Assembly: GCA_964434845.1 (NCBI GenBank)
Contig: CAYSWT010000006.1
Location: 1 to 38,792 of the forward strand
DNA: 38,792 bases
Direction of reading: 5' to 3'
Source of the DNA: an uncultured Atribacterota bacterium
GTDB lineage: Bacteria > Atribacterota > Atribacteria > Atribacterales > Atribacteraceae
Below, piece by piece: positions 1-38,792 of this stretch. Each line of letters begins with the position of its first letter. Within the stretch, counting starts at the first letter, position 1. A program made the translations under genes and the position numbers. The notes under the pieces are model-generated. The model made no database searches. It was given only the letters and a program-made list of their open reading frames with translations, and was not told where the DNA came from.

Positions 1-97
1 CTTTACAACTCAACACCTCAACCTCTCAACAACTCAACATTTTGGTGTTTTCATCCTCATATGGTGCCACAACGTGGCATGGCGGTCTATTATCCAG
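1..97 (-). repeat. Copy 1 (truncated by the window edge, reverse orientation) of the intergenic structured repeat family. Tandem CTCAACnn octamers at 6..37, core complement ggcatggcggtctattatcc at 76..95.
   Basis: Reverse complement of 8..96 aligns almost base-for-base with 38566..38652 (GGATA.TAGACCgCCATGCC ACGTTGTGGC ACCATaTGAGgATGaAAACACCAAAATGTTGAG...). Lies just 3' of the nrdJ stop. Confidence 0.8.
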
Positions 98-14019: not shown

Positions 14020-14197
14020 TTCAAAATTTGTATAAAAGTATCACCTCAATGAGATTCTTGTCAAGGATAATGTGTTTAAAAAGAGGCAAGAACCAATAAT
14101 TTTTCCGTCAACTGAGGATCGACCAATAAACCCTCTCTTGTTTCCCCTGCTGATGAATTGACAGAGTATTCACACAGATTCATAATATGCAAATAAA

Positions 14198-14293
14198 TAG
14201 ACATTCATGCCCATGGTTATTGCTCCTTGAAAGTAGGTTGAGTTTTCATCTTTCAGATGGTGCCAAGGTGTTTTCCTGGCATGAATGTCTATA
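14198..14293 (-). repeat. Copy 2 of the structured repeat family (MITE-like, 15-bp perfect terminal inverted repeats ATAGACATTCATGCC / GGCATGAATGTCTAT)
   Basis: TIRs at 14198-14212 and 14279-14293. Core ACCATCTGAAAGATGAAAACTCAACC present in reverse orientation. Sits in the divergent livK / flavodoxin promoter region. Confidence 0.8.
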
Positions 14294-14336
14294 AAGTGGT
14301 TGAGAAAAGGATAAATTTCATGGAGGATAAAGAATC

Positions 14337-23468: not shown

Positions 23469-23530
23469 CGTTTTTTTCCTTCCTTTTTAATATATATACC
23501 ATTTGGTAAACTGTGAACGGTTAATCTCAT

Positions 23531-23627
23531 CTTTTCATCCATTCCAACTCAACATCTCAACATTCTTACAATAAATATTTTTCATCCTCTGCTGGTGCAA
23601 GGGTATTCATCTGGCATGAATGTCTAT
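23531..23627 (-). repeat. Copy 3 of the structured repeat family (reverse orientation)
   Basis: GGCATGAATGTCTAT (23614-23627) is identical to an arm of copy 2. CTCAAC repeats at 23545-23562. GGATGAAAA complement at 23531-23540 and 23581-23590. Confidence 0.7.
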
Positions 23628-23727
23628 TTTCCATTTATTGCATACAAATATAATACCAATGAATAGATTGAGCAAACAGTATATAATACGATATGATGAG
23701 AAAAATAAATAAAGGAGGTGCAAAGGT

Positions 23728-24096
23728 GTGCCAAACTATATTGAGCCCGTTGAAGAACTCTCCAGTCACGATCGTGACATTCACCGAACTCTCAATAGTC
23801 TAAAAGAAGAGATTGATGCCGTTGAATGGTATCACCAACGAGCTGTGACCACCACCGACATCGATATGAAAGCCATTTTAGTACACAACTTAGAAGAAGA
23901 AATCGAACACGCTTGTATGCTTTTAGAATGGCTCCGTCGGAATATGCCCGGCTGGGATGAACGCTTAAAGATATATTTATTTACCGCCCAATCCATAACT
24001 GCTATTGAAGATCACGCTCCAACCGATTCATCAGAACCAAAAGAACGTTCTTTGGATGATTTGGGAATCGGGAATCTAAAAAATATTTCTCTCTAA
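23728..24096 (+). CDS. Encapsulated ferritin-like protein (EncFtn) cargo with C-terminal encapsulin targeting peptide
   Basis: GTG start with AAAGGAGG RBS. Close match to EncFtn: …AVEWYHQRA…ILVHNLEEEIEHACMLLEWLRRN…YLFT…ITAIE. C-terminal SLDDLGIGNLK matches the GSLxIGxLK cargo-loading peptide. Confidence 0.85.
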   Translation: MPNYIEPVEELSSHDRDIHRTLNSLKEEIDAVEWYHQRAVTTTDIDMKAILVHNLEEEIEHACMLLEWLRRNMPGWDERLKIYLFTAQSITAIEDHAPTDSSEPKERSLDDLGIGNLKNISL

Positions 24097-24163
24097 TACC
24101 AGCATAATCAAATGTCTATCCGTTTGTTGATCGATTCAGTGTTGAATCGGAAAGGGGGATTGT

Positions 24164-24967
24164 ATGAATATTTTAAAACGGGAGTTATCTCCGATAACCA
24201 ACCAAGCCTGGCAGGAGATTGATCGTCAGGCCAAAAGAATATTCCTCACTCAACTCACCGGACGGCGCTTTGTTGAAGTGATTGGACCAAAAGGGTGGGA
24301 TTTTGCCGCTGTGGGATTAGGGCGAATAAATGTTCCGGAAAACCAACGGGATGGAGACGTTCGTTTTGGAATCCATATGGTTCAACCATTAGTCGAAATT
24401 CGAACCTCTTTTCAACTTGATCTGTGGGAATTGGATAATATTACCCGGGGAGCAACCGATATCGATTTTACTCCTCTGATTGACGCTGCCAAACAAACAG
24501 CTCTATTCGAAGAAAAAGCCATTTATCATGGGTTCGAACCGGGAGATATCGATGGGCTTCTTCCGGTGCTTGAATATGAACCCCTTCCCTTCTCCCATGA
24601 CCCGGGGGAGTTTTTCGGTAGCGTGTTAGAAGCGGTTGCCGTTTTAAACGACGCCTCGGTTACCGGTCCTTATGCTTTGGTGATAAACCCACTTCTCTGG
24701 GCTGATCTAGCGGCAACAAAAAGTGGCTATCCATTAAAGAAACTCATCGAAAGCACGATCGAAGGTCAAATCATTCCGGCATCAGTACTGGAAGATGCAT
24801 TAATCGTGTCAACCCGGGGCGGCGATTTTGAATTGATACTCGGTCATGATCTATCGATCGGATACGAAAGCCATGACGATAAATACGTTAACCTTTATTT
24901 TACAGAATCCTTCACTTTTCGCATCCTCGATCCTTCAGTGTTTGTCCGTTTGAGTGTAAGTGATTAG
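24164..24967 (+). CDS. Family 1 encapsulin nanocompartment shell protein (linocin M18-like, HK97 fold)
   Basis: 267 aa. MNILKRELSPITNQAWQEIDRQAK…TQLTGRRFVEV.GPKGWDFAA…TSFQLDLWELDN…GPYALVINP…GGDFELILGHDLSIGYE is collinear with Thermotoga-type encapsulin. Confidence 0.9.
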   Translation: MNILKRELSPITNQAWQEIDRQAKRIFLTQLTGRRFVEVIGPKGWDFAAVGLGRINVPENQRDGDVRFGIHMVQPLVEIRTSFQLDLWELDNITRGATDIDFTPLIDAAKQTALFEEKAIYHGFEPGDIDGLLPVLEYEPLPFSHDPGEFFGSVLEAVAVLNDASVTGPYALVINPLLWADLAATKSGYPLKKLIESTIEGQIIPASVLEDALIVSTRGGDFELILGHDLSIGYESHDDKYVNLYFTESFTFRILDPSVFVRLSVSD

Positions 24968-28453: not shown

Positions 28454-28509
28454 TTTTCCACCTCCTTGCTGAAACATTAATTCTCCACCATTAAGATGAT
28501 CCTCAATAT

Positions 28510-28585
28510 GGATCGACCGCCATGCTGCTTGGCAGCACCATGTGAGGAATGAAAATCAAATGAGCCACATGCCATGGCATGTGGC
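28510..28585 (+). repeat. Copy 4 of the structured repeat family, plus a 22-nt perfect palindrome
   Basis: GGATCGACCGCCATGC-TGCTTGGCAGC-ACCATGTGAGGAATGAAAATC, then GCCACATGCCATGGCATGTGGC (28564-28585). Confidence 0.75.
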
Positions 28586-28804
28586 CCGTTACTTGTTACT
28601 GTAATTAATAATAGTGTGAAACTTTGAAGCTAAAAATTCAAGTCCTATTCCCCCTCCTTATTGGTGATTGATAACTATTTTACCCGAATATGATCGTTCC
28701 TACCATCCCCTGGTGAATGGAACAGTGATACGGGTAAATCCTTTTTAGCGATTTTCAAGATAAACACTCCTTATTTTTAGTATTTTCAGTGGGAAATGAA
28801 TATA

Positions 28805-37369: not shown

Positions 37370-38323
37370 TCAATCCAGTTGTTTTTTTAAATATCGTAAT
37401 GATTCACGCATCATCCTCTCGAGCAGATTGTCAGTATAATCTCTCCCCAACTTAGGTCCGGGAAGCTCCAAATAACCAATCACCGGAGAAACCGGGATGA
37501 TATCCTGATTGTCCAAAAGCAGTGTGTGGATTTTTTTCACATCGACAATACCTCGGTCAAGGTTTTCCGATTCAAATCCAAAAGTGTCATTATAGATCTT
37601 ATCAGTATTTTTAAAATGAAATTCATACATATAAGGGAAAGAAGCAGTGAAGTAGTGCATATTATTCTCAATGATCTCTTTCTTTTCATTCACCCATCCA
37701 TGGGAAACATCCGAACAATACCCGAATTGAGTTGTACTTTCTGGATGGGAATGGTGATGTTCTACCAATTCGTCGGCGATCATTTTTAATTCTGTTGTGT
37801 TGCAAGGAGGTTCGGCATAACACGACATCGGCTCCATGGTAAGCCAGGATAAACCATGCTCTTTCGCATAATACATCATCTCTTTCATGCCTTCAATATA
37901 GGCTTGTATCCCCTGACTCCGAAACTCGAGACGATCGCGTAAAACACCACCCATCGATGAACCGGCAGCCGGACATCTCAATATCTGAGCAATTTCTATC
38001 AAACGCCGGTAATTCTTAATCGTGATTTGGGAAAATTCAGGATCTTCAGTCATAAAACCACCAAGTTCTCGATGAGAAGTAAAAATACTGGATATTTGAA
38101 TACTCCTGGAATCTGCCGCTTCTTTCAAGCGTAAAAAATAGGAATCGGATAGAAAATAAAACTCGACAAAAGTTCCTAATTGGAGATAATGAATGCGTTC
38201 TTCCGCCATGAGGTCGAACAACCATTCAAATGAATACCGGTAATGAATGGGATCGCTTTTTACTCCTAACTCAACAATTAGATTTTTATTGGATCGTGAA
38301 CGGCTATTATTCATCGGTATCAT
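37370..38323 (-). CDS. Xylose isomerase-like TIM-barrel protein (sugar phosphate isomerase/epimerase family)
   Basis: 317 aa. Conserved His/Glu/Asp pattern (…WLTMEP…, …HHHSHPE…, …SDVSHGW…) consistent with the AP-endonuclease-2/xylose-isomerase-like fold. Confidence 0.55.
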   Translation of the reverse strand: MIPMNNSRSRSNKNLIVELGVKSDPIHYRYSFEWLFDLMAEERIHYLQLGTFVEFYFLSDSYFLRLKEAADSRSIQISSIFTSHRELGGFMTEDPEFSQITIKNYRRLIEIAQILRCPAAGSSMGGVLRDRLEFRSQGIQAYIEGMKEMMYYAKEHGLSWLTMEPMSCYAEPPCNTTELKMIADELVEHHHSHPESTTQFGYCSDVSHGWVNEKKEIIENNMHYFTASFPYMYEFHFKNTDKIYNDTFGFESENLDRGIVDVKKIHTLLLDNQDIIPVSPVIGYLELPGPKLGRDYTDNLLERMMRESLRYLKKQLD

Positions 38324-38563
38324 CCATTTCCTAATCTATAGTAAAAACACATCCGATAGCATAAACATCATTCAATTTTTAGTGATCAGATGTTTTTTGT
38401 CAACCTCGGTTCAAATGTTTTATTGAAAGAAAAATTCCCAACCAGAGCATTCCATGTGAATTATTTCTTGTAACAAAAGCATAAAAATTCATATTGGATG
38501 GAAAAAGAATGTGGAAGGTTGCTAAATAGTAAACTTTTTACATTTTACTTTTCACTGTATTTT

Positions 38564-38652
38564 CAGGATAGACCCTCATGCCACGTTGTGACACCATGTG
38601 AGTATGGAAACACCAAAATGTTGAGGTGTTGAGAGGTTGAGGTGTTGAGTTG
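38564..38652 (+). repeat. Copy 5 of the structured repeat family, with four tandem GTTGAGnn octamers (38620-38651)
   Basis: caGGATAGACCCTCATGCC-ACGTTGTGAC-ACCATGTGAGTATGGAAACACCAAAATGTTGAGGTGTTGAGAGGTTGAGGTGTTGAGTTGG. Near-identical to copy 1 (reverse complement) at the other end of the window. Confidence 0.85.
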
Positions 38653-38712
38653 GAAAAAAGCTAATGGAGAAAATTTTTTTACGACTCACTCCTCATGACT
38701 CACGGAATTTCC

Positions 38713-38775
38713 AGGATAGACCCTCATGCCGCATAGCGGCACTAGATGAGAATGAAAACTTTGAGGGTCTATCCT
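38713..38775 (+). repeat. Copy 6 of the structured repeat family: compact 63-bp version with 14-bp perfect terminal inverted repeats AGGATAGACCCTCA / TGAGGGTCTATCCT
   Basis: aGGATAGACCCTCATGCC-GCATAGCGGC-ACTAGATGAGAATGAAAACTT-TGAGGGTCTATCCt. Confidence 0.85.
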
Positions 38776-38792
38776 TTCAGTTTTAGTCTTTT

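Follow-up and report, generated by a model that had tools for sequence, protein, structure and literature searches.

Intergenic repeats of an uncultured Atribacterota bacterium as probable miniature derivatives of an IS110-family insertion sequence

Introduction

What are the short, hairpin-containing repeats that recur between the genes of an uncultured Atribacterota bacterium? The question is raised by contig CAYSWT010000006.1 (assembly GCA_964434845.1), of which a stretch of 38,792 nucleotides (nt), hereafter the window, contains six copies, the last two at its right edge. A reading of the sequence alone had described them as a structured element resembling MITEs (miniature transposable elements with inverted repeats) and repetitive extragenic palindromic (REP) sequences, and had recognised no named family. 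Here we report that the repeats are very probably non-autonomous, MITE-like derivatives of an insertion sequence (IS) of the bridge-RNA-guided IS110 family. In this family recombination takes place at a short core, circular forms arise, and the left end (LE) contains the bridge RNA (PMC11208160).

Repeats in the window

All six copies are present where they had been placed. A covariance model run with filters off gave exactly six strong matches in the window, with E-values of 6e-15 to 2e-7 (the model was built partly from the window copies, so the scores are not independent, while the absence of extra copies is still informative). The matches lie at 38713–38759 (+), 93–47 (−), 38565–38611 (+), 28509–28556 (+), 23630–23578 (−) and 14295–14242 (−), and the next-best match is merely an inverted arm within copy 6. 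The pattern ATAGACnnnCATGCC occurs nine times in the window against 2.1 expected from shuffling, and CACCATnTGAGGATGAAAAC four times against 0.

The module common to the six places reads (AGG)ATAGACCnnCATGC–hairpin–GCACCA–n5-9–rATGAAAAY. It spans ≈48 nt and can be written AGGAT-AG|ACCnnCA-hairpin-CCA…ATGAAAAY. As had been described, the copies are strictly intergenic, all six lying between open reading frames (ORFs) of the window. Overlap with a long ORF was seen in just 3 of 116 units from other genomes.

Full-length IS110 elements carrying the module

The same module opens the LE in a large clade of IS110-family elements, of which full-length copies came from Alicyclobacillus, Thermoanaerobacter, Paenibacillus, Bacillaceae and metagenomes. 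Compared within this clade were a Candidatus (Ca.) Carbobacillus element (L026; gathered loci carry L numbers), the Alicyclobacillus dauci plasmid NZ_CP104065, five other plasmids and the best 80 metagenome relatives that were kept. On the 3′ side of the L026 core come ≈200 nt and then an IS110-family transposase gene with a frameshift (Pfam DEDD_Tnp_IS110 1e-38, Transposase_20 6e-12), after which the sequence reads …ATTTTCAAGATAG. On the A. dauci plasmid the core lies 62 nt upstream of an annotated IS110 transposase and the element ends with …CAATTATTTTCAGGATAG. Three copies on this plasmid have identical LEs and right ends (REs) and unrelated outer flanks, and the core is therefore inside the IS and not part of its target. 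The module was also present in the five plasmid relatives (57–65% protein identity) and in 36 of the 66 metagenome relatives with enough upstream sequence (49–80% identity), where it always lies 208–269 nt before the transposase ATG. The 3′ end of the full-length elements, …TATTTTCAGGAT-AG, is the closing sequence of the short units. The clade has very many members among thermophilic and anaerobic Bacillota (Thermoanaerobacter, Paenibacillus, Brevibacillus, Pelotomaculum).

Alignment of 28 LEs showed that the module is followed by a −10-like box (TATAAT or TATACT) and two stem-loops. A segment of the first stem-loop (the target loop) repeats the element's own left junction, that is flank, core and first LE bases, as in AGCGGAGAT, CTCATAGAC and CCGGCAGTC. 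The corresponding segment of the second (the donor loop), GCAGGATAGA, equals the RE end plus core plus A. It reads CATGGTAGA where the RE ends CATGGTAG, and it tracks the RE variants CATGGTAG, CAGGGTAG, CACGGTAG and CAAGATAG; the RE sequence repeated in one bridge-RNA loop is CAGGATAGA. Judged by these sequences, the alignment reads like the published bridge-RNA architecture (PMC11208160). ATGAAA stands 14–17 nt upstream of the −10-like box in the full-length elements and is probably the −35 of the bridge-RNA promoter. A single-sequence fold of one full LE was no more stable than its shuffles (z = -0.59), and a sigma-70 scan of an array of short units did not rise above the shuffled expectation.

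The multi-copy cluster P0093 has the left junction GATTAAC-AG-ACATCC and the right junction TTCAGGAT-AG-GATTAA, which sets the crossover core as the dinucleotide AG. P0093 (L197–L206), from a host of ≈47–51% GC, is a highly multi-copy IS110 of the same clade and is indexed in 213 blocks of the collection. It inserts in a host repeat, …AGGATTAAC-AG-GATTAA…, and its target-loop segment TTTAACAGACAG matches the left junction.

These elements bear on a different explanation, by which the units are a host REP-like repeat that the IS110 clade targets, the core and the downstream TTTTCAGGATAG being the two halves of an interrupted target. REP-type repeats are known insertion sites of IS110 members (PMC11208160, PMC12288879), the L026 IS sits exactly at the position of the ≈10 nt filler in short units, and short, empty-looking units occur in a related Carbobacillus genome (L040). 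However, the core of the three A. dauci copies is 100% identical, variable nn and stem positions included, between outer flanks that are unrelated. The target loop moreover matches the sequence upstream of the AG core and not the core module, while the donor loop matches the RE end, and the distance from module to ATG is fixed across the 49–80% identity relatives in many assemblies. The A. dauci copies thus largely refute an interrupted target, which we regard as very improbable.

Structure of the short units

The window holds the following units and fragment, with covariance-model scores in brackets.

1..93, − strand: copy 1, truncated by the window start (62.6 bits)
14197..14295, − strand: copy 2, a degenerate unit (36.2 bits)
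23506..23630, − strand: copy 3 (44 bits)
28509..28614, + strand: copy 4 (52.2 bits)
38530..38571, + strand: RE-type fragment directly upstream of copy 5, AAACTTTTTACATTTTACTTTTCACTGTATTTTCAGGAT-AG
38572..38719, + strand: copy 5, a complete 148-bp unit (55.7 bits)
38720..38792, + strand: copy 6, first 73 nt of a ≈128-bp LE+RE fusion (66.5 bits)

The units are homologous to both ends of the full-length elements, are bounded at AG, have lost the transposition machinery and occur in head-to-tail arrays. Their 5′ part corresponds to the first ≈48–54 nt of the parent LE, with the donor right half-site ACC… directly after AG, the 6-bp hairpin plus CCA, and ATGAAAAY. Complete units with a readable 3′ end keep the parent RE terminus (…TATTTYCAGGAT-AG), and AGGATAG is found on both sides of units. 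The core is thus the LE start, and TATTTTCAGGAT-AG the RE end, of full-length ISs. The RE part of fusion units (TTTCAGTTTTAGTCTTTT…GTTTACAGGATAG) resembles the full-length RE by reading of the sequences, and units of an array meet at TTTTCAGGAT-AG-ACC, the junction predicted for the donor circle, which the donor-binding loop would read. In short, the units are short, non-coding, multi-copy and bounded by LE-like and RE-like boxes. What had been taken for a free-standing REP-like or small RNA (sRNA) family is accordingly the left-end terminus of an IS110 element, in units that close with its right-end terminus.

The window copies show this layout in different states, all with the LE start and most with an RE end. 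Copy 1 has a TGGATA-ATAG|ACC junction with the AG core at 88–87, the LE module, hairpin GCCAC/GTGGC, ATGAAAAC and then a GTTGAG-repeat module running past the window edge; contigs L008 and L011 continue it as ...GATAAAAAGATGAGATCCTCA. Strain contig L007 keeps the copy 1 core and has a 3′ module that differs from that in L008. In copy 2 the LE module (TATAG|ACATTCATGCC, a bulged hairpin, CACCA, GATGAAAAC) is followed by a 30-nt filler and an inverted LE start (GGCATGAATGTCTAT). Copy 3 passes from its LE module (AAATAG|ACATTC...) through a short GTTGAG module to an RE-like tail ...GATGAGATTAACCGTTCACAGTTTAC. In copy 4 the junction of the LE module is mutated (GGATCG|ACC) and the hairpin reads GCTGC/GCAGC; AATGAAAAT, the 22-nt palindrome noted earlier (GCCACATGCCATGGCATGTGGC) and a degenerate RE-like tail (…GTTACTTGTTACTGTAATTAATAATAG) follow. 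Its palindrome module (CGACATGCCATGGCATGTCG) also stands 3′ of cores in other Atribacter species.

At the right edge, the fragment at 38530..38571 is the right end and AG core of a preceding unit that lacks its LE; a unit in L002 ends with this module too (…AAACTTTTTACATTTTACCTTTCAC…TTTTCCAGGATAG). Copy 5 consists of the LE module (ACCCTCATGCCACGTTGTGACACCATGTGAGTATGGAAAC), a GTTGAG-repeat module and an RE tail …ACGACTCACTCCTCATGACTCACGGAATTTCCAGGAT-AG, and is 91% identical to copy 1 across 89 nt. Copy 6 has the LE module, GGTCTATCCT (the junction inverted) and the RE start (TTTCAGTTTTAGTCTTTT…), and then runs past the window edge into a tandem array. Copies 1, 3 and 5 all continue through the GTTGAG-repeat module. 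This module is G/T-rich with an 8-nt period, GTTGAGnT (window 1–45 (−), 23541–23561 (−) and 38613–38655 (+)), occurs at further loci of the same organism (L003, L007, L012) and has no counterpart in the full-length ISs examined.

The perfect inverted ends reported for copy 2 (15 bp) and copy 6 (14 bp) are indeed there. Copy 6 is nevertheless not a 63-bp MITE but the first half of a ≈128-bp unit that extends past the window. The description as a MITE-like dispersed intergenic repeat stands, and terminal inverted repeats as its defining trait do not, as they occur in one unit type only. A classical MITE was rejected on the same grounds: the inverted ends are confined to the LE+RE fusion type (copies 2 and 6), where they are internal to the ≈128-bp unit, the ends of other units are unrelated, and the flanking repeat is the sequence-specific AGGAT-AG and not a target-site duplication.

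In the units, ATGAAAAY is directly followed by an unrelated module or by the RE. The hallmark of an autonomous IS110 is a recombinase with a DEDD (RuvC-like) and a Tnp domain (Pfam PF01548 and PF02371). In a tblastn search of the window and L001–L085, the L026 protein matched only L026 itself. The bridge-RNA part of the 28 LEs, searched as an nhmmer profile, had 87 matches in all at E<=1, of which those in the window and in L001–L105, the 105 loci gathered before the full-length ISs, were only L026 (1.6e-31) and, weakly, L062 (E 0.3). With neither recombinase gene nor bridge-RNA loops found for the units, autonomous IS110 elements were dropped as a description of them.

Tandem arrays and 3′ modules beyond the window

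Contigs of the same organism were found in metagenomes by exact-protein look-up of the two terminal genes of the window. The window does end with two copies, as had been noticed, and these turn out to be the start of a tandem array of 4–6 units. The array adjoins the upstream side of an AP-endonuclease-family gene (window 37370–38323, − strand), copies 5 and 6 being its first two members, and L001–L006 contain the continuation of copy 6 and 2–4 more units. The units are arranged head-to-tail with a spacing of 127–370 nt, and each begins with AGGATAG|ACC and is preceded by …TATTTYC. The junction between them is TTTYCAGGATAG|ACC, and a lone AGGATAG stands after the final unit.

Assemblies of three samples contain different arrays and, past them, different genes (LacI…TIG; RecG…CTP-transferase; Lpt…AhpC), and many contigs end at the array. 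L001, L002 and L003 share the common gene and the first two units, diverge within the third unit and lead to different arrays and different neighbours. Either the strains are truly rearranged at the array, or the assemblies are chimeric at the repeat.

The 3′ parts of units are modular: some have GTTGAG repeats, some the palindrome or CCCCTCACC-type hairpins, and in others a ≈75-nt tail is fused on directly. Unit lengths are mostly 50–250 bp, using a regular expression for the 3′ junction, and the commonest clean form is the ≈128-bp LE+RE fusion. Atribacter cores also often precede other widespread hairpin repeats, CCCCCTCACC…CCTCTCCC, CCGTCATTGCGAGGAG… and GTCATTCCCGAA…TCGGGAATC, in Atribacter metagenome-assembled genomes (MAGs) (L018, L020, L038, L043–L047, L059, L068, L073 and others) and in L001 at 9400–9300. 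Core sites therefore seem to be places where several repeat families accumulate together or recombine.

Could the units be independent decay products of separate full-length IS110 insertions, such that the small forms never transposed? A natural example of decay exists in A. dauci copy D (L106:6000–7427 compared with L116:24468–26050). Here an internal deletion of ≈146 nt (CCTTTGT|…|ATGGTCG) removed exactly the bridge RNA with both its loops, and the transposase gene, LE module and RE were retained. Copy D must rely on bridge RNA from sister copies, and it shows how bridge-RNA deletions arise. Window copies 2–4 are degenerate, and copies 2 and 3 lie in gene spacings that are unchanged across strain contigs, as decay in place would have it. 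Against decay, the same architectures recur at many loci in several Atribacter species (the ≈128-bp LE+RE fusion; core, GTTGAG module and TCACGG tail; core and palindrome), many cores are identical within one species (e.g. AGGATAGACCCTCATGCTGCTTTCGCAGCACCAGATGAGGATGAAAAC), and the sampled sequence contains more than 100 units and 0 full-length copies. We consider independent decay unlikely.

The hairpin

The stem of the hairpin is 6 bp long (TGCNNC/GNNGCA) and not 5 bp as first described. The compensatory changes seen among the window copies hold more widely: among 93 distinct cores from many genomes, 95.9% of cells are paired and four of the six pairs show double changes. The covariation score of the stem was 0.259, a value reached by 0 of 500 shuffles, compared with 0.014–0.110 in slid controls. 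Two stem positions switch, one between U-A and C-G and the other between G-C and A-U. The candidate closing helix CAT/ATG showed almost no covariation.

In the full-length ISs the signal is stronger: 99.3% of cells are paired, 29 cells show double changes, and the score of 0.634 compares with 0.153 for shuffles and <=0.053 for slid partners. The hairpin is under selection in these elements, and as their exceptions are of the G-U type only, with no A-C, the sense strand is the probable target of this selection. The miniature copies have 11 G-U-type and 9 A-C-type exceptions, counted from the pair tables, and hence no strand asymmetry; they seem simply to inherit the stem with a drifting sequence. 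Selection for structure, which had been proposed for the repeats, is thus real but acts on the parent IS. Likewise, the sequence-only reading had set its element apart from fragments of IS ends lacking a hairpin conserved in its own right; the repeats are essentially fragments of IS ends, but their hairpin is conserved independently, as the pairing in full-length ISs shows. Were a junction promoter used, the hairpin could by its position correspond to the 5′ stem-loop reported for IS110 non-coding RNAs; with the internal promoter alone in use, it would be situated upstream of the bridge RNA.

A covarying hairpin might also be the functional core of a free-standing structured RNA (an sRNA, riboswitch or small ribozyme) or of an element of the REP/RAYT type. 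Many unpaired positions are highly conserved across phyla, and the presence of G-U but no A-C exceptions in full-length elements suggests sense-strand folding. The conserved unpaired positions can, however, be explained as the donor half-site and possible −35 box of the parent IS, and the miniature copies do not share the G-U/A-C asymmetry. No relevant Rfam match was found, even at E<=10. Rfam 15 gave no match at the gathering threshold in the whole window. At E<=10, region 38400–38792 gave seven weak, unrelated matches (E>=0.1, far below gathering), none aligning the core module, and at E<=1 one full-length LE gave no match. The earlier statement that the repeat belongs to no named family holds in that no Rfam family matched, and no tRNA or tmRNA was found.

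Nor is there an orientation bias. The same-strand count was 45 vs 39 for the upstream gene and 38 vs 24 for the downstream gene (summed table), and a cis-regulatory RNA is made less likely by the avoidance of ORFs together with the lack of a clear orientation preference. No copy was seen to adjoin a Y1/RAYT gene, no search aimed at RAYT having been made, and the only transposases seen beside copies were IS110 (L026 and A. dauci, the first two full-length elements found) and one TnpB. We judge a free-standing RNA or REP/RAYT element extremely unlikely. A REP/REPIN assignment is further opposed by the embedding of the hairpin in a 48-nt asymmetric module of an IS110 LE.

Inspection by eye led us to drop several other candidates: hammerhead, HDV, twister or pistol-like three-way junctions, a K-turn, box C/D, a tRNA-like minihelix with ACCA and a sigma-54 promoter. 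An 8-codon mini-ORF was rejected because its frame is not conserved. IS200/IS605-type elements (TTTAC target), IS91/Helitron-type one-ended capture, integron attC-like cassettes and Xer/dif modules were dropped once the full-length IS110 copies gave the boundaries.

Distribution and site occupancy

An exact pattern scan of one genome per species matched at least 73 DNA stretches. Among the matches listed, most were from Ca. Atribacter MAGs; Bacillota were also matched (Carbobacillus, Desulforadius, Alicyclobacillus, Anoxybacillus, a Peptococcaceae bacterium and other MAGs), as was one Caldisericales bin, which comes from the same sample as an Atribacter bin and may reflect contamination. More than 100 distinct units were collected from fragments sampled from several Atribacterota MAGs. 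No core was present in the phage database, and IMG/VR contigs gave no match to one stricter, longer core pattern. Among the matches listed in a full-text literature search, those for GGATAGACC were unrelated, and those for Atribacter with repeat or intergenic terms concerned unrelated subjects only.

At the copy 2 site, gene spacing is unchanged in strain contigs with both flanks (1501–1950 after an upstream gene end at 1171/1183). At the copy 3 site, the spacing of the flanking genes is identical in the spanning strain contigs (L096–L100), while L101–L105 begin 40–257 nt upstream of the EncFtn gene, at or near copy 3. An orthologous site in two Atribacter species (L047:1225–1300 and L078:2205–2260) carries a 5′-truncated core in both (…GTGGCACCAGCTGAGGATGAAAAC vs …GCAGCACCAACCAGATAATGATGAAAAAAAC) with differing 3′ modules, and so some insertions are older than the species split and 3′ parts turn over.

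Copy 3 lies in a divergent promoter region between an EncFtn/encapsulin pair and the gene of a large Big_5/Cohesin/PKD surface protein. According to Pfam labels on matching contigs, window 23728–24967 (+) holds an EncFtn-like gene followed by a Linocin_M18 (encapsulin shell) gene. In a Bacillota MAG (DAHWFY01; L069:2313–4323), two inverted complete ≈75-nt units bracket a TnpB-like gene (394 aa, Pfam Cas12f1-like_TNB 1.3e-8) and its downstream non-coding region, a layout like that of a composite element. No second TnpB association was found by tblastn among the loci.

Discussion

The ends, the AG boundary and the arrays make an origin from an IS110 element very likely, and a course of events can be proposed. 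The bridge RNA and recombinase gene would have been lost by clean deletion, giving the ≈128-bp LE+RE unit, or by replacement with hairpin or repeat modules. An IS110 recombinase and a bridge RNA, both provided in trans, may then cut units out as circles and insert them again; the donor loop of that RNA would read CAGGATAGA. Insertion would take place at AGGAT-AG sites, and the RE end of a resident copy would offer the same half-site. Solitary units have AGGAT-AG in front of them, but not the TTTTC indicative of a preceding unit; as every unit also ends with AGGAT-AG, new copies would insert preferentially beside resident ones. Same-orientation tandem arrays whose junctions equal the circle junction could arise in this way, and could then serve as recombination hot spots and assembly breakpoints. 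Tandem cargo repeats formed by CazIS110-1 in ≈3% of events (10.1101/2025.10.25.684509), together with the minicircles and tandem duplicates of MITEPpu9, which is flanked by LE/RE-like boxes (PMC12288879), lend plausibility both to mobilisation in trans and to insertion that builds up arrays.

Several points weigh against this origin or against parts of the proposed course. No IS110 gene or bridge RNA of the clade was found in the Atribacterota sequence examined, which comprised the window and short stretches around units from fragmented MAGs. Among the named proteins of 120 listed relatives there was no Atribacterota, most of the 120 bearing no name. With no autonomous partner found in that sequence, present-day mobility in the host is hypothetical. 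Two candidate partners were discarded: L125, the only one of the best 80 relatives from the sample of the window organism, has 62% GC and is not Atribacter, and P0093 belongs to the organism of ≈47–51% GC. No filled-versus-empty site was seen in strain contigs of the flavodoxin and EncFtn neighbours or in cross-species synteny pairs; copies 2 and 3 keep their gene spacings across the spanning contigs, and the synteny comparison offered one informative site, occupied in both Atribacter species. AGGAT-AG before solitary units requires that the target half-site equals the donor half-site, and the full-length relatives lack such equal half-sites, their left flanks being different. Most units contain 3′ modules (GTTGAG repeats, palindromes, CCCCTCACC-type hairpins), for which simple internal deletion is insufficient, and the 10-nt inverted junction copy in fusion units is not accounted for by the proposed origin. 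Finally, the hairpin/CCA module is without an established role, and the −35 assignment depends solely on the variable 14–17 nt spacing to −10-like boxes.

More tentatively, the units might form a natural 'donor-only' system with a linked and so far undescribed cis-acting role in this IS110 clade for the hairpin-CCA-ATGAAA module, a possibility that we hold to be less probable than its opposite. The target half-site would then be the unit's own right-end half-site (AGGAT-AG), resulting in self-targeting, and cassette-like tandem arrays would act as landing pads and rearrangement hot spots. Recombinase and bridge RNA might come from a rare, unassembled or even foreign IS110. The hairpin-CCA-ATGAAA would provide the 5′ stem-loop of a junction-promoted transcript and the −35 of the bridge-RNA promoter, and such a cis-acting role, if true, would explain why the module is retained in every miniature copy.

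There is precedent for a MITE derived from IS110, and the Atribacterota units add another case. MITEPpu9, a derivative of ISPpu9 in Pseudomonas putida, is likewise non-autonomous and without transposase, is thought to be mobilised in trans through minicircles, and has some copies in tandem, as here (PMC12288879). It carries the sRNA gene ssr9 and has eight copies, usually beside its IS in REP targets (PMC12288879). The units described here, in contrast, have no recognised gene, number more than 100 in the sampled fragments, form arrays of 4–6 with interchangeable 3′ modules, and occur in genomes in which the parent IS was not found. With IS621, CazIS110-1 and the Thermoanaerobacter/Alicyclobacillus/Paenibacillus clade the units share a homologous LE start, AG core and RE terminus. 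Unlike full-length IS110 elements they have no recombinase gene and no target- or donor-binding loops, and they measure 60–250 bp compared with ≈1.4 kb.

Correia, RUP, BOX, NIMEs and REP/BIME repeats are, like the units, small, intergenic, multi-copy, hairpin-containing and modular, and classical MITEs and REP/BOX mosaics are likewise sometimes clustered and a cause of assembly breaks. What defines classical MITEs is terminal inverted repeats together with the target-site duplications that DDE transposases produce, and REPs depend on Y1 (RAYT) enzymes and consist of a 20–40-nt palindrome with a conserved 5′ tetranucleotide. The units differ from both in their asymmetric ends (LE ≠ RE), their directionality and a 2-nt crossover core repeated within AGGAT-AG, which would be the outcome expected of a DEDD/serine bridge recombinase.

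A conspicuous repeat of Atribacterota, seen also in a Caldisericales bin where contamination is possible, can thus be labelled as an IS110-derived miniature element, and its arrays explain where contigs of these organisms break. For the biology of bridge recombinases, the units represent a large natural set of minimal donor substrates, with LE start, AG core and RE end within 60–250 bp, and of tandem arrays whose junctions are the donor site. They also bring to this field a strongly covarying LE hairpin, kept across relatives of 49–80% protein identity. The same element ends in Bacillota and Atribacterota would fit a horizontal spread of the clade. Finally, non-autonomous copies can far outnumber autonomous ones, which bears on how RNA-guided elements persist.

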